From the NCBI RefSeq assembly GCF_038025025.1, contig NW_027117344.1:930001-994000 (forward strand): 64,000 nt of DNA, in the 5' to 3' direction. The notes beneath the pieces were generated by a model that did not search any database, was not told the origin of the DNA, and was given only the letters and a program-made list of their open reading frames with translations. Origin of the DNA: Phyllosticta citribraziliensis (taxonomy: Eukaryota). Both the position numbers and the translations under genes were made by a program. Shown here one piece after another: positions 12,631 through 24,817 of the stretch; position 1 is the stretch's first letter; the number at the start of each line of letters is the position of its first letter.

Positions 12631-14211
12631 ATGGCAGACCTGGACGCCCACGAGAATGCGAGCACCTTGGCATCTCCTCTGACCTTGGAGAGCGCCTACT
12701 CTGAAGGTAAGACGGATCCAGTCCACTCTGCACCGCCGTAGAGTAGACCACGACAACGAGCAAAGAGCAACAAGCCGAAAACAATTCTAACACACGGGTT
12801 ACGTTGTCGGAACAGAGCCGCCTTCGTACTACTACGAAAAAGACATAGACTCAGAGCGCCTCAAGCAAACCGACGCATACGAAATCCTGATCAAGCACAG
12901 CGGAATCCCAGAGCAAGACGTTCTGAAGCACGTCAAGGAGCAGGTGAGTCGCCGTCATCGGCCAGCAGCATAGCAGCACAGCAACACTGCCGAGCGTTAA
13001 CATATAACCTTGACGAATTGCCCATCTTTTCGGAGGTGGGGCGCTTGGGCGTGATGATTTTCCAAGTTGGAGTTGGTGGACTTGGAAAGTCATCACCCCC
13101 AAGCGCCCTTCCTCTTTTTTTGTTCTTTCCACTTTTTCTACCCCAAAAGAGCATGTGGTTGTGCGTCTGTTCGAGTCGGGCTTGGCGCTCACGTCTTTAT
13201 CATCTCTCTCCTGTCCTTTTTTGTTTTGTTCGTCCTACCTGTCCGATTTTCCGAAAGAGCCGAGAGAGGGAAACCAGCACGCTGACATGACATGTCGCTT
13301 GCACAGAGAGACAAGGCGTGGAAAATCTGGCCGTACCCGTGCATCGGAAAATGGCAGTTTCTCGACTGCGGCATCAGCAGCTCCGTCGCGTACTCCGAGG
13401 TCCTCGAGCGCGTCAAAAATGGCCAAATGTACCTCGAGGCTGGCTGCGCCTTTGGCCAGGATCTTCGCAAATTGGTCAGTGAGGCTCTCAACCAGAACAC
13501 TTGAAACCGCTCGACTTGGCAGCACTTCTCCTGCAGTCTATCGGGATGTATTCAAGTGGACTGCTCGTTCTCATTGTCAACCCATTGCCATCTGACGCAT
13601 AGAACAAGGTCAGCGACGGCGCACCGCCCGCCAACCTCATCGCCACCGACCTCTCCGACGACTTCTGGCAAGTCGGCTTCTCGCTCTTCAAAGACGAATC
13701 TCGACTCGGCGTGCGCTTCATCGCCGCCGACGTGACAGCCGCATCGAGCCCACTCACCGCGCCGCCGCCCGCTGGCATCGCCGGCTCCGTCGACATCATC
13801 CACGCGTCTTACTACTTCCACCTCTTCACGCGCGCCGAGCAGCTCGAAGTCGGCCAGCGCCTCGTCGGCGTGCTGCGGCCTGTGCCGGGGGTCTTGCTGG
13901 TCGGTCGCCACGTCGGCAACAGGTTTCCCGATGAGTATGTGAAAAAGTCTCCGCACAAGGACGGGAAGAGTGGGAAAACGGCGTTTCGTCACAATGAAGA
14001 AACATGGAGAGCGTTGTGGGATGAGATTGGACAGCGGACGGGGTCTAAGTGGGAGGTTGAGTACAAAGACTTTGATCTTGAGCCCAAGTGGGTGCCATTT
14101 GAGGCAAAGGGTTGTATCGTGCAATTTTGGGTGGTGAGGCGCGTAAGCAAAGAATCGTCTTTAGCTGCTTTCCTTGACTATGAAGGAGACAATGATCTTA
14201 TTCTTGCATGA
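12631..14211 (+). CDS. SAM-dependent methyltransferase (fungal AusD/Trt5-like family); introns 12707-12815, 12944-13306, 13475-13608
   Basis: Manual splicing gives ...KHSGIPEQDVLKHVKEQ|RDKAWKIWPYPCIGKWQFLD...YLEAGCAFGQDLRKL|VSDGAPPANLIATDL...DIIHASYYFHLF...LRPVPGVLLVGRHVG, matching this family; exact C-terminus less sure. Confidence 0.85.
13032..13115. repeat. Intronic inverted repeat forming a ~30-37 bp hairpin with a 10-nt loop
   Basis: 13039-13068 GGGCGCTTGGGCGTGATGATTTTCCAAGTT pairs with 13079-13108 GACTTGGAAAGTCATCACCCCCAAGCGCCC (one C-C mismatch, two G-U). Confidence 0.9.
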
Positions 14212-14369: not shown

Positions 14370-16045
14370 CTATCCCGACTTTCTGGGACGCAAAACTGTG
14401 TGAACCCCTTTTTGAATGACAAACCACCTGTGGCGATGATCAGTATCATGTCGGCCGACCAAACACACAGCGGATTTCAGATTGGTCTCATGGAGACAGC
14501 TTGACTTACCGGCAGTCCTCAGTCCACTCAGCTTCTGGGTCCACAAGCTGCAAATCGTAGCGCATAAAGAGTGTCGGCACCAACTACCAAGTGTCAGAGG
14601 AATATCCGATTAAAGGGGGAAAAAAGTACCTTGGACATTTCCATCCAACTAATGTCTGAAATCTGTCAGCTGTAATCTCATGTTCTGATTGCACTCAATT
14701 TACTTCGTCCAATGCAAGTCCTCGCTCCTGACCCAAAGGCGAAAAAGAAGCGATGCATGTCGTCGCTCTTCTTCTCCAACCATCTCTCAGGGCGGAAAGC
14801 TTCAACATCTTGGCCGTAGACCTGCTCGTTCCGGTGGACGACCCAGGGGTTGACGCCAACGATGGTTCCAACAGGAATATATGTGCCATCGATCTCTGTC
14901 CCTCCAGGAGGCACGACACGGGGAAGACTCATTCCAACTGCAGGGTGCATTCGCAGTGCTTCGTACATGACCGCTTGGAGGTATGGCATGCTGTCGGCTT
15001 CAGCAAGGGTGAGAGGGTCGCTGATTTTACCCTGGCTGTAAAAATCGTCAATCTCGGCTACGAGCTTGCGCTTTACTTGCGGATTCTTGAGTACGTAGTA
15101 GATGATGGCGCGAGTTGAGATGGCCGTTGTATCACTTCCGGCGAAAATGTTGGACGAAGCCATGGAGACAAGGTCGTTATAGTCAAACTGCAGGGGCTTC
15201 TCCTTGTGGACGGTAAAGAGCTTGCTGAGAATATCCTTGCGGTCTGTTCCTCTGTCTTTGCGGCCTTCGGTTTCTCGCAGAGCAAATTGTCGAAGAGATC
15301 CATTGCGTGCAGTCAAGGCCAGGTGATTTCCAATCACGGGCTGCAGATAGTCGTGGAGCCAGAAGAGCCAAGGCACCTGTCCGACCCACGAAGCGGATTG
15401 AAGTGCGTTTTCAATGGCTTGGAACGAGCCGTCGTCGGCACCCACCTCCATGAACCCAAACGCTTTTGAAAAGGTGATTTCGCCAATGATGTCAAAGGCA
15501 AACAGTTGGACCCAGTTCCCCATGTCCACCGCTCTTCCCTGCCGCTCTTCCATTTTTCTCATGAACAATCCAATCGATTCGTTGACATATGGCTCGAGGT
15601 CCTTGAGTGCTTCCATGGAGTAAGCCCTGGCGACAAGGCGGCGATGCTGGCCATGAATGCCTTCATCTCGGCCAGCGAAAAGATCAAACTTGCGACGACC
15701 CTGCCAAACGCTGTACCAATCGCTCTTTTGGAATTTGGTCCCCGCGCCATAGATTTTCTTTATGGAGTTGAGATCCGCAACGCTGACCTCGTTTGGGCCT
15801 ATTCGGACAAGACTGCCATGTTTTGCGTGGAGCGCTATCATTGTCCGATGGAGGTCGCCCGTCCATGAGTGCTTTGTGATCCAGTATCTCGAAATGCTAG
15901 CCCAGAAAGGGCCAGGGATGCTGGCAAGAGGGGAAAAGAGGCGCTGGTAGACAACCCATGCTGCAAGCGATGCAAAAGTGGCGACAAGCAAAGCCACGGT
16001 CGTGTGGTTTGCGACTGAACAGTACAATTCATAGAGGAGAGCCAT
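14370..16045 (-). CDS. Cytochrome P450, pisatin-demethylase-like group; 3 introns near the 3' end
   Basis: N-terminal TM + IPGPFWA, VRIGPNEV, I-helix AGSDTT, EALR, FRPERW, heme FGSGARTCIG; spliced tail NISWMEMSK|LVPTLFMRYD...|WFVIQKG...SG*. Confidence 0.95.
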
Positions 16046-16814
16046 GTCTGGAGTTGGTTGTGAATGCGCAACTCTCAAGAACGAGCGCCAGTGTCCAATG
16101 TGTACGTCTCGGCATGTTCGAGATGTGGTCGTTAAGGTGAGGGGTCAAGACATGCAAGCTTCTCGTGTGCGGATATATCCACAGCGCCGGGATTATGCAG
16201 AAATCTGGGGTAGCTCGACGCTATCGACCAGTGGTTGCTGAGAAATGGCGGATTGTGGATTTGACGGCCATGACAAAGGCTGGGGGGGTGTGGGTTCGGT
16301 GGATTCGCTGCAATGGACGACGTTCGGTGGCCGAGGTAGTGCTTGGTAGGTTGACCTGTGGCTGATGCATGGCGAAACAAGGCGAGTGTGATTGGCCGAC
16401 GGGACGAGACGCAGCCCGATGAAGATGGGTGTTGTGGCTGGAGTGGTGGTCGAGTTGCCGTGTCCGCATTCCGCTATGGCTGACATGCCGACTCCAGAAT
16501 CCGGAGGACCCGTATGACGCCTGTGCGCCCCTTGCTCCCCGCACCATTCTCCCACAACTCGTTCGCGGCTACCGTTTCGGGTCCATCGTTTGCTACAGCG
16601 TCAATGGCCGATTTTTGTACCCCTACCTGCGCCACTTTGCCGAGCTTCCTTCGCTATGACGGCCTCATCACGTCCGCCTGCTGCCCTCCATCTGCCTTTT
16701 CCAGTTGCCGTGAGATAGTCCAAATATCGCATATTAAGCCTTTTCCCCTAACGCCTGTCTGTTCCTATACTCCTCCGCCGTCCTCCTTCCCCCCTCCCCT
16801 ACGGATAGCCCAAG
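16046..16814. promoter_or_regulatory. Bidirectional promoter between P450 and FAD monooxygenase with candidate Zn2Cys6 sites
   Basis: Head-to-head starts 769 bp apart; CGG-N3-CCG at 16325-16333 and 16566-16574, CGG-N5-CCG at 16502-16512, CCGAGG at 16331-16336. Confidence 0.5.
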
Positions 16815-18752
16815 ATGGAAAAGTACGACATTGTCATCGTCGGCGCTGGTCCCGTTGGACTGATGCTCGGATGCCAACTCCAGCGATGGGGCTACAAGAT
16901 CAAGCACATAGACAACCGGCCAGAGCCGACGCCCACAGGGCGTGCCGACGGCATTCAGCCTCGCTCACTGGACCTGCTCCGAAACATGGGGCTCAAGCGC
17001 AAGATAATGTCCCATGACCCGGCAAAGGTCTACGAAGTCGCATTTTGGGATCCCGGCGCGAATGGTATCCTCAGAACTGGGACGTGGGCAAGTTGTCCCG
17101 ACTTCATCGACGCTCGGTACCCTTTCACGACGCTGCTGCACCAAGGGTTGATCGAGCGAGCGTTCATTGAAGACATTGAGAAGAATGGCGGCCAGATCCA
17201 AAGACCATGGACCATCACCGCTTTTGAAAATGACGGTAAAGATCCAGAGTACCCGGTTTCTGTCAGCATAGCCCACGTCGATGGTGGAGCAAAGGAAGAC
17301 GTGCGAGCAAAATATCTCTTCAGCGGAGAAGGTGCAAGAAGTTTTATCCGAAATCAGCTAGGCGTGGAAATCCGGCACAAGGATCCAATCGCGCACGTAT
17401 GGGGCGTGATGGACGGCGTTGTCCAGACTGATTTCCCGGACATCAAGGTAATAGTCTCCTCGAAATCTTCGTAGCGGGGCTGACCTGTGCAGATGAAATG
17501 CACCATCCACTCCGATGCTGGATCAATCATGGTCATTCCTCGAGAAGACAACATGGTCCGCCTGTACATTCAGATTGCTTCGTCGACAGATCCGGACTGG
17601 AATCCACGGAAAACCGCGAGCGAAGAGGACGTCCAGAATGCGGCCAGGAAGATCATGACGCCCTACAACATCAAGTGGGATCGAGTCGAGTGGTACTCCG
17701 TCTATCCAATCGGCCAGGGCCTTGCAGATCGCTACACACTCGACGAGCGAGTCTTCATGGGCGGCGATTGCTGCCATACGCACAGTCCCAAAGCTGGCCA
17801 GGGAATGAATACGGCTTTCCTCGATGCGGCCAACTTGGCCTGGAAGATTCACTATGTCGAGTCCGGCGTTGCAAAGCGGGATACTTTGAAGACGTACGAA
17901 TCCGAGCGCCGCCTTATTGCGGAGAATCTCCTCAACTTTGATTCCAAATATGCCAAGCTCTTTTCATCGCGCATCCCCTCGAGCCACGAGGTCGGCGCTG
18001 CCAGCGCGCAGGCAAAGGGCCACAGTGCCGAAGAGAACGAGTTCGTCAAGACCTTCAAGGAGTCGTGTGAGTTCACTTCGGGATACGGCGTTGCGTACAA
18101 CTCCAACATCTTCAACTGGTCAAGCTCACACCCAGCGCGCTCGCCGCTGTTCCTCTCATACCAAAACGGCACGAAGCTTCGCACAGGTCGCATCCTCCAT
18201 AACGCGACCGTAACTCGCGTTGTCGACGCAAATGTGGTCCACCTGGAGCAGCAGATTCCGCTCAACGGTTCGTTCCGCATCTTCGTCTTTGGCGGCAAAC
18301 CGCAGCGCACAAAGGAAGCGCTGGCCGATTTCGCCGCCGCCCTCAACAAACGCAACAGCTTCCTGTCCGTGTTTGAGCGCAAGGACAAGGACTCGGTCTC
18401 GTACCACGAGCGCTACAACCCGCACTCGCACTTCTTCACCTTTGCCACCGTCTTTGCGGCACGAAGGAGCGAGATTGAAATCCTGGAGCTGCTGCCCGCC
18501 CTGCTGGCGCGCTACAAGGACTTGGTGTTTGCCGACGACATTACAGACGCGCGAGAGCCAACCGCAATCGCGGCGGCTCATGCAAAGATGGGGTTGAGCG
18601 ACGAGACGGGTGGTGTAGTCGTCGTCCGGCCGGATGGCTATGTTGGCGCGGTTGTCAAGCTGGTGGAAGGATCGGGCACTGTCGACGCCCTCAATGAGTA
18701 CTTTGACTCCTTTGTGGATAAACCGGTTGGAGGCGAGAGGGCGCAGCTGTAG
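16815..18752 (+). CDS. FAD-dependent phenol 2-monooxygenase family hydroxylase (resembles fungal p-hydroxybenzoate m-hydroxylase); intron 17448-17492
   Basis: GAGPVG FAD motif, [34 protein letters not shown]-terminal [10 protein letters not shown] dimerisation domain. Confidence 0.93.
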
Positions 18753-19268
18753 ATTTGTAGCGTGACGTGGGGGAGTTGAAGCAGTTGCATATTGGCGCGT
18801 TTTTAGCGGAATGTAAATCTTTCAAACGAGTTGTTTGTTGATGTTGCGACTGTCGAGAGAACGCTCATGTAGAGCGGGACGTGATGGTCATACGCATCGT
18901 GCTCTTGTTGCGAGACCTCTTCGCAGCTGGAGAATTCGCGATAAGCCATCATCGCCGCTGCTTCTTCATTTGCAGAGAAAATTTTGTCGGAAGCCAGCTG
19001 TGTGCGTCTCAGCCTGTGAAATCAGCTGGCATTTCTTCTTCTTCGGCAAACCCGTCTTCGATTCTGCTGAAAACATGGATAAAGTTGGAGACATTCGCTA
19101 GTAGGTAGGGCGGAAGAAAGATTTGGATGGTTGTGGCACCACCGAAAAACAGCACCCAAGCACCTCACGCAGCATGCCTTACGTCATCCATCGCTCTATC
19201 ATCCATGCCGCTTCAGCACAGACAAACACAATCACTCGACACCAAACGCTCTTCTATAGCCCCTGTTG

Positions 19269-20004
19269 ATGACATCCTTCGTCCGTTCCGCAGGGCCGCC
19301 CTCGCTGTGCGTAAAGCGCTTGATTCCGCTCGCACCGCGCGCAGCTCCAACTCCGTGTCCCGGCAGTCGCGGGGGCCCCAACTTCTTCAGCGCCAGCAGC
19401 CAATCGCGCCGCGCATACCGCAGCAGCAGCATCCAGATGGCGCCCAAATTCGCGCCAGGCTCCGACGAGAGCCTGTTGACGCAGCAGACGCAGCAGCTCG
19501 TGCAGGAGCGCGGGTGGGAGTTGGATCAGGAGGAGATGGGGCTGCGCAAGACGTTTGATTTCAAGACGTATACTAAGGCTTTGGTATGTGTTTTGTTATG
19601 CTCTGATCCGCCTGTAGGCCGCATGGCTCTGCGTTGTCTGTCCGAGGTGTCCTGACTTTCGGGTTGCGCTATGTAGGACTTTCTGAACATAATCGGCGTG
19701 AGGAGTAAATCTAGAAGCCACCATGCTACCATGACCATTGTAAGTCTGCACCTATCTAACACCTTCACCACCTCTCCTGCTATCTGAGTGGATGTGGCAA
19801 CATACGAAATCTTATCAGCAATCAAACTGATGCGAAAAGAAACCCTCCACCGTCGACGTGCACTGGACAACCCACGTGCCGCGCGGTCTCTCGTCCAAGG
19901 ACGTCGACATGGCGCGGTATTGCGACGAGCAGGCGGCGGAGATTGGCACCATTGATAAGGGCCAGGGCATGAATTGTCGAACAGGCAAAGCTTCTACTTC
20001 TTGA
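19269..20004 (+). CDS. Pterin-4-alpha-carbinolamine dehydratase/DCoH-family protein, probable mitochondrial presequence; introns 19584-19676, 19740-19839
   Basis: GWEL...GLRKTFDFKTYTKAL|DFLNIIG...HHATMTI|KPSTVDVHWTTHVPRGLSSKDVDMARYCD; alternative ATG at 19437. Confidence 0.8.
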
Positions 20005-20960
20005 TCAAATGGATGGATTCATAGTGTGCAGCTTATTCTTCAGTTGCTGCTTGGCTGTCTATCCCGAACGACGTGTTTTCCCGCATCCAACTTGACCACG
20101 GCAAAAACAACGACCAACTCCTCAGCTAAATCAGGTCCTTTCGCAAGTGCAATCCCCACCAAGCCGTCTTTCCTTCCTTCCTTCCCCCCCTTTTCCCACA
20201 ACTACATCAACTGGCCATCCCTCCGAAAGAAGCAGCCATTGACGTACGACCGGCGCGAATCGACGTCCGGCAGAAGCGGCGGTGGTGAAAGGGGGTAAAA
20301 GTCATCGTACGCATGACGTCGACGGCTTTTCACTTTTTCTTCGACAGCGACCGAGAGCCTCGTCGTCAGCTTCACGCTCTCTTTTTCTTTTGGGTCGCTT
20401 TTTGTTTTTCTTGGAGGAAAAGATCTAGAGGGAGGGTTGAGGAGCTAGATGGGTGTATTTTGCGAGTCAAGGTGCTAGGCAAACGCCTCCCGCGCCCGAG
20501 TACATTTTGGCAACGGATATGTCTGCTGAGGCGTGGGTGGTGCGTCGCGTCCCCCAGTGACGGGCGGGCCCAGAGCACCCTGCTGATTATTATCTGCCCC
20601 AGAGACGGATATGATGGAGATGAAATCTGGAAATGTGGTAGAAATTTTGGGGGGCTTGGGCACCCCCTTCATCACTTCCTCATCACGCCTGGTGAGGCGA
20701 GCGCTCCGCCACGATGCTGCGTCTGAGCAAGCAGCAGGAAGCGCACCGCCATCACGCAGGGACTCATACCGTGGACTAGATGGAGGGTGGAAATAGGTGG
20801 GCAGACACGAACGAGAACTAAGCCCGTGACTCACCCATGTCGTGGTCGTCGGCGTCTGCCTGCAAGGCGCCCGTCATGGTTTTGGCGTCGTCACGGCCAA
20901 TGTCGAGGTCCTGCTGGCTATCAGGTATCCGCGGGTTGTTCGTCTGTCGAGAAAAAGGAA

Positions 20961-22372
20961 TCAGCCATGGTGTTCAAGGGAGCATCCAAAAACCTTGCAC
21001 GTCACATCCGACGTCGGCGTGTAGTGGTGGTTGTGGTGGTGGTGCCGCACCGACAACAACTGCTTAGCCTGCTCTTTCATCCACTCCACGTAGCCGTCGA
21101 ACGCAAAGGGCGGGATGAGAGAAGGGCTTGGAGCTGTACTGACTTCTACCACCTTGTCGCCATCGACCCGCACCTCGTAGTCCCGGAGTTTCCGCATGAG
21201 GGCCAGGAAGTTGCTTTGCTGGAACTTTTCGCTTGTATCGTGCGATACGCTGTCAAGAAGCTGGCCCGCTGTCCGTGCTAGCTCTTCGTCCTCCTGGTTT
21301 GGCACGTGTTGTTGCTCCTGCTGGGCATCCTCTCTTGCATGCGTTTGCATAGCCTCCAACTCCCCAGCTACCTCCAGCTCCCTGGCCTCCAGCAAATCAG
21401 TCTCGAGTCGATATTGCTCGTTGATATTAGACGAGCTGAGGGATTTCAAAGCTCCGTCAGCATTTCTCTGGGCCTCGCTTTGTAGAAGCGCGTCGTGATC
21501 TTCCACGGTGTCTGCTGAAGCTCGGTCCAAGACTTCGCCAATCCCAAAGTCTATAGTCTCAGACGAACGAAACCCTCCAAGTGCGGCTTGCTCCTCTGTC
21601 TGCGCTCTTTCTAGTGCGTCTCTTGCTCCCAAGTCTTGGCTCTCGTGTGACGATCCAGTTTGCTCAGGTGCCCTCTGTGCTTCTTCAGCATTTAGCATAT
21701 CAGCGTGTGCTTGTTCGAATGCCTTTTCGAACGCCGCGTCATGCTGCGCCGTCTGAGCGAAGGGATCGTGCTGTTGGCCAGGTGCAGGCGAGTTCAGGCT
21801 TCCTTGCGCCGACATGAATGGTTGGTGTTGTTGTAGTGATCCATTTCCCCATCCCAGCGTCGGCGCGCCTGTGTACATGGAAGTACTTGGAGCATGCGAT
21901 ATCTGCCTCGAAGCTGGGGCCTGCGGTTGTTGCCGGAGAAAGTCGTTGCTCCATGACGTCGTGTGATTGTGGCTTGAAGCTTGAGGGTGGAAGCGATTTT
22001 GCTGGGAAATCATGGGTGGAGGCGGGGAGGAGACATGAAGTCGTTGGAAATCGGCGGCCCAGTCAGGAAGCCCAGCGGGGCCTGTGAGATTCGGCTGCGG
22101 GATGCTGTGCGGAGGCAAATGCATGCCCTCTTGCGGTCGACCCGCTTGAAAGGCTTCAAACTCGGGATCCAAGATTCCGGCATTTTGCGCAGAGTTCGAT
22201 CGGAAATTCTGGAGAAGCGTCAGCAGCGAAGGCAGAGAAGTCGGGTTGTGCGCCACACCTGCGACGGCGACGGTCGAGAGACGAGTCGGTCTTGCTGTAG
22301 AGTCCGATCTACAGAGCTGTGCTTCTGGAAGTTTTGGAGCGCATTCGACGGACCGCAAAGGGCGTCGGACAT
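20961..22372 (-). CDS. pex20: Peroxin Pex20 (PTS2 co-receptor); intron ~22210-22258; 3' end uncertain (read-through to 20961 or splice 21143-20944)
   Basis: N-terminal MSDALCGPSNALQNFQKH..DRTLQQDR (ubiquitinated Cys), WxxxF motifs (WAADF, WSNDF), Pex7-binding KFQQSNFLALMRKLRD.EV. Confidence 0.88.
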
Positions 22373-22681
22373 CGTGAGAAAAGATGACAAGATGAAGAAT
22401 GCAGGTTGGGTATCTCAGGCAGCGAAACAAAGTGAGCGTGGAGAAAGTGGTGGTTGTGAAGTAGAAACAAGCGCGGGAGGAATCCTGGTCGCTTGACCTC
22501 CGCCTAGGCCGAGGTCCATGATGCAACCCGGGCGAGGTAAACGATAACGATGCTAGTGACAACCGTCGAATCACCAACGTCCTCACTCTAATTTTGGCCT
22601 CCGACTATCACGACATGATTGCACTATGAATAAGAAGAACAGCAATTGGGAAAAATCTTTCAATTCGCTCTACTCTCTGTT

Positions 22682-24073
22682 TCACCTGAGCTCTGCAAAC
22701 CTCCTCCACTCAGGGTCCTCTCTGAGCCGATCCAACCGACTCTTTTCAACACCAACGTACACCTCCAATCCTCCGTCCGGCAGTCTTGGAAATACAGCTT
22801 CCAAGCACTGCAGCATACCCGTGACTGGAAGTCTCATGCTGTGAATCTTGCCGAGCGCGGTTCCCCAATCCAGGTCAAACACGGGGTAGTCTACCCAAGT
22901 CGTAAAGATGCAGCCAATCCCGGGCACGTTCAAGAATGCAGTCAGAGGGAGGCGGTGGACATCCTCCAGCTGTTCTACCAGCGACGCAATTTCATCGTAG
23001 TAGCTTTGTCTGCTCACATCCTGAAGGGTGCGTCTTATCGCCATGGCCAAATCCGCCAGAGATGCTTCCGTCAGCATCTTTCGAAGGTCCATGGTGGTGT
23101 GCGAAAGGGTCCAGAAGTTACCCAGCGTCTGCGGGTGTATGGGCACATGCATCCGCCTCCGCACATCCAAAGTCTCGGCCAGAATCGATTGCGGGTTGCC
23201 CTCCATGGTGTCCAGGTCGTGCTGAGCGCTCATGACGGTGCGCCAAATCAGGGCTGCCATGGCATCTGCTGTGGAGATGTATTCGGTTCGCTCCGACTTA
23301 GGGGTGATCTTTGCATTTTCAGGGGAAGCCTCCGCTTTGAGCTTTTCCACAGACTCTGGTGAAAAGTAAAACACGTCTCCGAGATGGTTGTCCGCTGCGA
23401 GGTTGGGCGGCAACTCTGTTGGCGTAAAAGGGATGTGCGTGAACTGGGGATGGTCTTCGAATTTTCCCGGATTCTTTCCTGTGCTCCTCAAGACTTTCTC
23501 TCTGTCACTCCAGTGGAGTTGGACAGGATCAGCGGTCGGGATTCCTTGGGCCCATCTGCACTCCTCGGCCCAAACCTTTGTCCATTCGTGGATGGTGGTT
23601 TGATCTGCCCAGGCGTGGAGGATGCACAAGCTCAGAATGACACCTCCGTTGATGAAATTAGGTCGGACAAAGGTCATGGGCATGCGCTCTCCTGGTGCAG
23701 GCCAGACTCCATGCGGGCAGAGGTCCTCAGCGCGGAAAGCAGAGGCCGGGAAGTGCTTGTCCTTCAGCTCCGAGAAGCTCGGAAAGTCTGCGCCGCGGAG
23801 GTCCTTGACGGTAAAATCTTCGATCTCGTCGCCATACTCACGAAGCTTCAACATGCTGCCTTGCTTGGACGACAAGTCGGGAACAGCCTCGCAGCCGAGT
23901 ATGGCGGAGCGGTTCTTGGTCGCCTGGTAGCCGCGGCGGAAGATATCTGACACGACGTCAATGTCATAGTCTTCGGCCAATTCGAAGACGTAGAAGTATC
24001 GTATCCATCCCTTGGGAAAGATTGGCTCGAGGGGAATGTTGGAAGGGGCAAAGTTCGGAGCGATTGAACCCAT
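22682..24073 (-). CDS. CoA-dependent O-acyltransferase (Tri101-like transferase family), intronless
   Basis: HxxxD motif LHAWAD after NFINGGVILSL, ISTADAMAALIWR, LGN, DFGWG-like DLDWG, PRLPDGGLEV, C-terminal L..DPEW; TATAAAAA at 24136-24143. Confidence 0.88.
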   Translation of the reverse strand: MGSIAPNFAPSNIPLEPIFPKGWIRYFYVFELAEDYDIDVVSDIFRRGYQATKNRSAILGCEAVPDLSSKQGSMLKLREYGDEIEDFTVKDLRGADFPSFSELKDKHFPASAFRAEDLCPHGVWPAPGERMPMTFVRPNFINGGVILSLCILHAWADQTTIHEWTKVWAEECRWAQGIPTADPVQLHWSDREKVLRSTGKNPGKFEDHPQFTHIPFTPTELPPNLAADNHLGDVFYFSPESVEKLKAEASPENAKITPKSERTEYISTADAMAALIWRTVMSAQHDLDTMEGNPQSILAETLDVRRRMHVPIHPQTLGNFWTLSHTTMDLRKMLTEASLADLAMAIRRTLQDVSRQSYYDEIASLVEQLEDVHRLPLTAFLNVPGIGCIFTTWVDYPVFDLDWGTALGKIHSMRLPVTGMLQCLEAVFPRLPDGGLEVYVGVEKSRLDRLREDPEWRRFAELR

Positions 24074-24817
24074 GTTGAGTGATTGAGGGCCTCGATTGAG
24101 TCGGTCGAGTTCACGACATTCCATAATAGCCCATCTTTTTATACTCGCAACTGGAAGAGGACATCCGAATGAGTTGCGAGGGCCGCGCGGAATCAAGTCA
24201 AATCTGGAAAGTCACCTCGCATATTGGGTGGGTTTAGGGGCCAAGAGTGATAGCAGCGGAAAGGGCTAAATCGCTGGCCAGTGGTAGTCGTCGGTAAGCA
24301 CATGTAGGCAGCAAGGGATCGTCCCAGCCAGCAAACGAATCAATACTTCTAGAAGCCCTTGACTGTTGAGATAAGAAGCTGTCGGTGTTTGATCAGGTTC
24401 AAGGCGTGGGCAGGGGGCGGCCGGACAGTGACTGCTGCAGAGTTCTTGAGCCATCTTCAGGGTCTCGGTAATCTGGTAATGGAAAAAGATGGTTCGGCCG
24501 AAGGGTGGAATCTTGTCAAAAGTGGGTCAGAGTGAGGGTGGTGCTTTCGCGGGCCGCCATTGCGGTTTTTTTGGGCTAACGGGCGAGGTGCCGCTGGTGG
24601 TCAAAGACATGAACAGGGCACCGCCAGTCTCGTAGATGATTCGGCCGGACGTCCGGTGGTTGATGTGTTTGCATCCAATAGAGTGGGTCAGAGGCAGTCT
24701 TCTCGCAGGCTTGCGTCGTTGTTGTTGCGAAGTCCGTCCCGTCTGGCCCGAGTGCGGCCTGAGGTGAGGTGCGGTGGGTGACTAAACATCTTGGCAAGTT
24801 TGCTCCATTTGCATCAT

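Follow-up and report, generated by a model that had tools for sequence, protein, structure and literature searches.

What is a long, nearly perfect RNA hairpin doing inside an intron of a fungal methyltransferase gene? The structure lies in a 64-kb stretch of Phyllosticta citribraziliensis DNA, the whole of which (hereafter the window) was analysed, and an earlier note on this DNA had offered three answers: a microRNA-like RNA (milRNA) carried by the intron, a structure that acts on splicing, or a foldback or MITE remnant. Here we report that the hairpin is real, far beyond chance. The microRNA-precursor-like shape claimed for it stood up, the definitions of a mirtron and of a yeast zipper stem did not fit it and, with no target-site duplication at its ends, the evidence sits most easily with the plain foldback part of the third answer. 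Our tentative reading, to which we give a little less than an even chance, is that a single-locus, fairly young and locally generated foldback occupies intron 2, folds in the pre-mRNA and leaves with the intron, without a selected function.

The intron was placed from contigs that cross its joints (Table 1). Runs X2, X3 and X5 hold spliced contigs although none of them is on record as RNA, and the introns that gain RNA support in this way are the three of the host gene. In run X3, stretches of 109, 363 and 134 nt with GT..AG ends are missing from a contig of 3,117 nt (depth 1336.9), the first and last being introns 1 (12707–12815) and 3 (13475–13608), and the same three joints recur in contigs of run X5, which stems from a different organism (organism C). 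The coordinates that had been proposed for the 363-nt intron are therefore exact. Because this intron is precisely removed in two organisms, the hairpin does not block splicing. At 2.7–3.3 times the length of the gene's other introns, intron 2 is long, and it is also about three times the mean intron length of 116 bp reported for a relative in the same order (PMC7325678); the hairpin makes up only 82 of its 363 nt.

The four exons, joined and translated, are identical to P0001 (324 amino acids), which the source names an uncharacterized protein of Phyllosticta citribraziliensis and which carries precomputed Pfam assignments to PF13649 (Methyltransf_25) and PF27593, bearing out the identification of the host as a methyltransferase gene. 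Through its Methyltransf_25 domain the full-length product is predicted to be a class I SAM-dependent methyltransferase. Searches with parts of it gave little: single exons found nothing in Pfam or sub-threshold matches only (exon 4 alone, 15.9 bits versus a threshold of 27), a search of PDB sequences with exon 4 returned nothing relevant, and a metagenome scan with the exon-4 protein produced 200 pattern matches and 0 relatives. Orthologues from two other Phyllosticta species align without a gap across the seam between exons 2 and 3.

Table 1. Features of the host gene, its second intron and the hairpin (window positions)
Feature	Position	Strand	Basis
Host gene, Methyltransf_25-type methyltransferase; exons 12631–12706, 12816–12943, 13307–13474 and 13609–14211	12631–14211	+	Contig joints; translation equals P0001
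Intron 2, 363 nt, GTGAGT...CAG, phase 0	12944–13306	+	Joint that skips 363 nt with GT..AG ends in one X3 contig (depth 1336.9) and one X5 contig (depth 46.8)
Hairpin, 5′ arm	13033–13067	+	Inverted-repeat search; pair probabilities 0.94–1.00 (491-nt pre-mRNA context) except at two mismatch positions
Hairpin, apical loop; arms spaced by 12 nt, of which the minimum-free-energy (MFE) fold leaves 10 nt unpaired	13068–13079	+	Sequence; fold
Hairpin, 3′ arm	13080–13114	+	Inverted-repeat search; 3 mismatches in 30 against the reverse complement of the 5′ arm core
T7 (U-rich) run directly 3′ of the stem, followed by more pyrimidine-rich intron	13115–13121	+	Sequence
Predicted pairing partner, within the intron, of the 5′ splice site (12944–12954)	13183–13192	+	Pair probabilities 0.72–0.79; present in the intron MFE fold
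CTGAC, likely the branch-point motif, with its branch A at 13285 and 21 nt upstream of the 3′ splice site	13282–13286	+	Sole CTRAY in the last 60 nt of the intron
Intron-only X2 contig of 206 nt (depth 5.7) with no differences from the window, starting 2 nt before the stem base	13031–13236	+	Contig; weak hint

The hairpin is an inverted repeat with 35-nt arms that are 89% complementary across a spacing of 12 nt, 82 nt in total. The sense-strand RNA from 13020 to 13130 folds at −64.4 kcal/mol (z −9.40), whereas dinucleotide shuffles of it average −32.4 ± 3.4 kcal/mol, with 0 of 200 as stable. The stem consists of helices of 5, 12 and 18 pairs (13032–13036/13111–13115, 13038–13049/13098–13109 and 13051–13068/13079–13096), with mismatches between them at 13037/13110 (U-U) and 13050/13097 (C-C), and two of the pairs are G-U (13038/13109 and 13058/13089). 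This 35-bp stem matches the extendable 30-bp stem with one C-C mismatch, two G-U pairs and a 10-nt loop from which the question arose; the U-rich tract said to follow it is the T7 run. In a 491-nt pre-mRNA context the pairs have predicted probabilities of 0.94–1.00, the exception being the outermost wobble (13032/13115, 0.25).

Among 8,520 segments of 111 nt taken from both strands of the 64 kb, the lowest MFE belongs to the hairpin (−65.2 kcal/mol against a mean of −28.7, s.d. 7.9), and five of the eight best-folding segments overlap it. It is also the sole long, well-matched, short-loop member of the four short-range inverted repeats found in the 64 kb, the other three having 18–20 nt and 75–79% complementarity. 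The description of the hairpin as the strongest non-coding signal in the window thus holds as far as folding energy goes. The minus strand folds more weakly, at −55.9 kcal/mol, which leaves the transcribed strand ahead by 8.5 kcal/mol and agrees with the expectation that the wobble pairs work on the plus strand. This advantage arises because the two transition differences between the arms both give G-U pairs on the plus strand, and the chance that both would favour one given strand is about 0.25.

A mobile origin would leave traces beyond the hairpin itself. MITEs and other foldback elements of fungal nuclear genomes are small and have terminal inverted arms, and the present feature resembles them in both respects, the whole of it being two inverted arms and a short loop in an intron about three times as long as its neighbours. 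If a small mobile foldback had inserted here, there would be other copies in the genome. Differing from such elements, however, the hairpin has no target-site duplication (left flank ...TTTTCG, right flank TTTTTTTG...), and its flanks CCCATCTTTTCG and TTTTTTTGTTCT hold no adjacent direct repeat of at least 2 nt. It is also single-copy in the 64 kb: with up to 3 mismatches allowed, only the two arms themselves match. The best matches beyond the arms that blastn-short found in the window are 11-nt exact words (E = 0.88). Matches to the arm core in metagenomes numbered 35, and 0 of the 35 extend into the flanks or have a partner arm; with flank identities of 10–23 of 60 and best partner-arm matches of 10–12 of 19, all are attributable to chance.

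One further sequence bears on mobility. A contig of run X4, from another organism (1,912 nt, depth 269.9), matches the apical 40 nt of the hairpin (13054–13093), with 1 gap and 7 mismatches, beyond which it runs into another inverted repeat that is AT-rich (..ATAAAAT / ATTTTAT..), as a dispersed element might. This match cannot be told from chance, however, because it is short and symmetric about the centre of the palindrome, and it probably comes from an AT-rich, organelle-like contig; it may itself be a hairpin element of organelle type. We accordingly rate insertion of a MITE-like element as quite unlikely. Another contig of run X4, 230 nt long, aligns to exon 4 over 229 nt without a difference.

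The shape of the hairpin invites comparison with several classes of structured RNA, most of which it does not enter. Mirtrons, reportedly described by Ruby et al. in 2007, are likewise hairpins carried by spliceosomal introns of protein-coding genes, and the ends of a mirtron hairpin are set by splicing; here 89 nt separate the base of the stem from the 5′ splice site and 192 nt from the 3′ one. The ends of the hairpin are thus not at the splice sites, and it is no mirtron. The snoRNA classes are defined by box C/D or H/ACA consensus sequences. A box-C-like GTGATGA occurs at 13051, but the sole CTGA of the intron is that of the branch-site motif at 13282, so there is no box D, and Rfam gave no snoRNA-type match on the sense strand (one chance-level row lies elsewhere, on the opposite strand, at E = 7.9). 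In yeast Rnt1 substrates an AGNN tetraloop caps the stem; the AGUU at 13071–13074 sits inside the 10–12-nt loop and forms no closed AGNN tetraloop, which sets aside a substrate of that type.

A broader proposal is that a Dicer-like or other RNase III enzyme cuts the hairpin, in the pre-mRNA or in the excised intron, into small RNAs that are either milRNA-like or hairpin siRNAs. Known fungal microRNA-like precursors include the milRs of Neurospora. The present hairpin shares with a microRNA or milRNA precursor a stable stem-loop on the transcribed strand, in an intron transcribed with its host; with only two mismatches in 35 bp, a loop of 10–12 nt and the sense-strand advantage, it would make a plausible substrate. 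The depth of the X3 contig implies that the methyltransferase gene is very strongly expressed in that run. Botryosphaeria dothidea, a fungus of the same order, is reported to have 2 Dicers, 4 Argonautes and 3 RNA-dependent RNA polymerases, and its predicted milRNA precursors (the Bd-milRNA candidates) span 67–356 nt and −21.4 to −136.4 kcal/mol (PMC7325678); as a stem-loop of about 80 nt on a transcribed strand, the hairpin falls inside both ranges.

Other results count against processing. Fungal microRNAs and milRNAs wholly inside an intron, as this one would be, were found 'very rarely' in a re-analysis of fungal hairpin small RNAs (PMC9757828). Membership of a curated family is not found: Rfam returns no family at its gathering score, the best being mir-657 (28.3 bits versus 69), and although 12 of the 13 matches at E ≤ 10 fall on the hairpin, they are generic matches to the shape of a microRNA, far below their gathering scores. 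A 21-mer scan of the 64-kb window for antisense targets gave 4 matches, against a mean of 1.75 and a range of 0–14 in 20 shuffles, so that the window offers no target above the shuffled level. By title, no small-RNA study of Phyllosticta was among the literature matches listed. We regard a Dicer-like or RNase III substrate as possible but unlikely, and its narrower version, a true regulatory milRNA, as decidedly improbable.

Another proposal is that the hairpin and a second, predicted helix together shape the long intron and slow or adjust its removal. In the 491-nt context, where the hairpin is predicted to form with a probability of about 1, the 5′ splice site is predicted to pair with the intron segment listed in Table 1; this helix (12944–12954/13183–13192) would mask the splice site and close off a domain, about 250 nt long, with the hairpin inside it. 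The pairing joins GUGAG(U)CGCCG at the 5′ splice site to a sequence containing GGCGCUCAC, about 240 nt downstream. If the intron were retained, translation would end at an in-frame stop 9 codons into it (12971–12973; open reading frame 12791–12973).

Contigs hint weakly at some retention. Run X5 holds an unspliced contig across the border of exon 2 and intron 2, at depth 5 beside 46.8 for the spliced contig, and run X2 holds the intron-2 contig, but contig depth is a poor guide to how much of the intron is retained. Both X5 contigs contain the final 30 nt of exon 2, as expected where an assembly graph branches. Stems in introns do affect splicing in yeast, where, in one account, zipper stems and other long stems share with the present hairpin a stable helix, a shorter effective intron and a feature that sets the pre-mRNA apart from the mRNA (PMC12350175). 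The geometry differs, however: in that account zipper stems have linkers to the 5′ splice site and to the branch point that total 42–85 nt, whereas here they come to 89 + 170 = 259 nt around a structure that is predicted, and this fails the definition. The long-range helix, too, belongs to a predicted MFE fold of the intron whose frequency in the ensemble is 0.0013. Weighing these points, we think a role in splicing or retention rather improbable.

The intron-only contig of run X2 suggests another fate. After splicing and debranching, the stem might stall a 5′-to-3′ exonuclease and so act as a cap that leaves a stable fragment running from the stem base. The contig begins just before that base, and its depth of 5.7 is close to the 6.9 of the contig joining exons 1 and 2 in the same run, although contigs show neither the ends nor the levels of RNAs. 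Coverage by the X2 contigs leaves out 12944–13030, 13237–13306, exon 3 and introns 1 and 3, and the X3 contigs cover none of the introns. Against such a cap, the X5 intron contig is continuous from exon 2 through the hairpin and so looks like pre-mRNA, and the proposal draws on a single after-the-fact observation. We hold it to be very improbable.

Comparison with organism C bears on the age of the stem. Of 1,091 aligned exon letters, 78 (7.1%) are different in organism C, and the intron has diverged by about 17%. In the unspliced contig, which covers 12914–13259, there are 55 substitutions and 8 indel events that amount to 11 gap letters. The interval 13033–13113, where about 2 of these events would be expected, contains none (P = 0.094 under a uniform model), and the indel-free stretch extends over 13019–13113; a single indel deletes the final base of the 3′ arm (13114), and of the remaining seven, six cluster in the 37 nt that precede the hairpin or the 16 nt that follow it. 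The pattern hints weakly that stem length has been kept in organism C. In the window's own sequence the arms differ at 4 of 35 positions. A repeat that dated from the split from organism C and evolved neutrally would have gathered about 5.8 hit pairs, and since the probability of 4 or fewer is 0.285, the stem is no better kept than drift allows. Its state could result from neutral decay if the repeat originated around that split or later.

For the neutral foldback that we tentatively prefer, the course of events could have been as follows. A local inverted duplication, most plausibly a template switch during replication, would have created the foldback, and a later slippage of 6 nt would have altered its loop. 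Transcribed within the pre-mRNA, the sense strand is predicted to fold into the 35-bp hairpin and would thereby loop out 82 of the 363 nt; the spliceosome tolerates it and takes it out along with the intron, at canonical GT..AG sites, as the spliced contigs record. Its effects would be by-products: the intron would be more compact, and splicing, or decay of the intron once excised, might be slower. The slippage step is suggested by the top of the hairpin, where AGTTGG, read from the sequence, occurs twice in tandem (13065–13076), so that slippage may have duplicated 6 nt of the arm end and thereby lengthened the loop to 12 nt; such a tandem fits local replication errors.

That the foldback arose by template switching and that it serves no function are what we infer. 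Template-switch mutations are reported to create whole hairpins in one event and to be enriched in introns of expressed genes (PMC10710096). The hairpins described there resemble the present one in being near-perfect inverted repeats (stem about 35 bp, loop at least 10 nt) that are intronic and expressed with their host; they differ in that the cited work concerns primates and in that the event is here a reconstruction.

Several observations run against the neutral foldback. A stem of 35 bp and a loop of at least 10 nt also match the design preferred in primary microRNA transcripts, as given in the same study (PMC10710096). Both transition differences between the arms give G-U pairs on the sense strand, the host gene can be very highly expressed (depth 1336.9 in X3), and the X2 intron-only contig starts 2 nt before the stem base; the absence of indels from the stem in organism C points the same way, weakly. 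On the alternative reading, selection would have acted on an intron-hosted RNA element, either a milRNA precursor processed by Dicer or a cap that makes a stable intron-derived RNA from about 13031. This broader reading stays open because of three weak hints, namely the indel-free stem in the relative, the sense-favouring wobbles and the start of the X2 contig, and we allow it a slim chance.

Intronic inverted repeats shaped like a pre-miRNA are a known kind of feature, to which this hairpin adds another case, and there is nothing in it to surprise a specialist unless small RNAs or covariation are found. As a tolerated foldback, it would be an ordinary case of local replication errors placing a pre-miRNA-shaped hairpin in an expressed intron. 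Should small RNAs arise from it, it would matter more, since well-supported, wholly intronic fungal milRNAs are rare (PMC9757828); if processed by Dicer, it would be a clean, wholly intronic milRNA of a filamentous ascomycete, made together with the transcript of a secondary-metabolism methyltransferase. Genomes of sister species of Phyllosticta are public, among them those of P. citrichinaensis, P. citriasiana, P. citricarpa, P. paracitricarpa and P. capitalensis (PMC9073689), and with an RNA-verified intron and a host that can be highly expressed, the question of small RNAs is therefore cheap to settle.

The neighbours of the host gene are a cytochrome P450 gene (14678–16144, minus strand), an FAD phenol hydroxylase gene (17484–18752, plus strand) and a Transferase/TRI-like acyltransferase gene (22682–24211, minus strand), so the methyltransferase sits among enzymes of tailoring type, and the stretch from 14678 to 24211 looks like a neighbourhood of secondary-metabolite tailoring genes. 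No core synthase was identified among the 22 open reading frames scanned against Pfam. Upstream of 12500 the long X3 contig continues for about 1.1 kb; in the other direction it runs about 0.8 kb beyond 14300, where it enters the convergent P450 gene at its 3′ end, and the methyltransferase transcript may overlap that of its neighbour. At the protein level, the C-terminal tail of the methyltransferase (window 14150–14211) is about 20 residues longer than in the two Phyllosticta orthologues, with 324 amino acids in all against 304 and 300.
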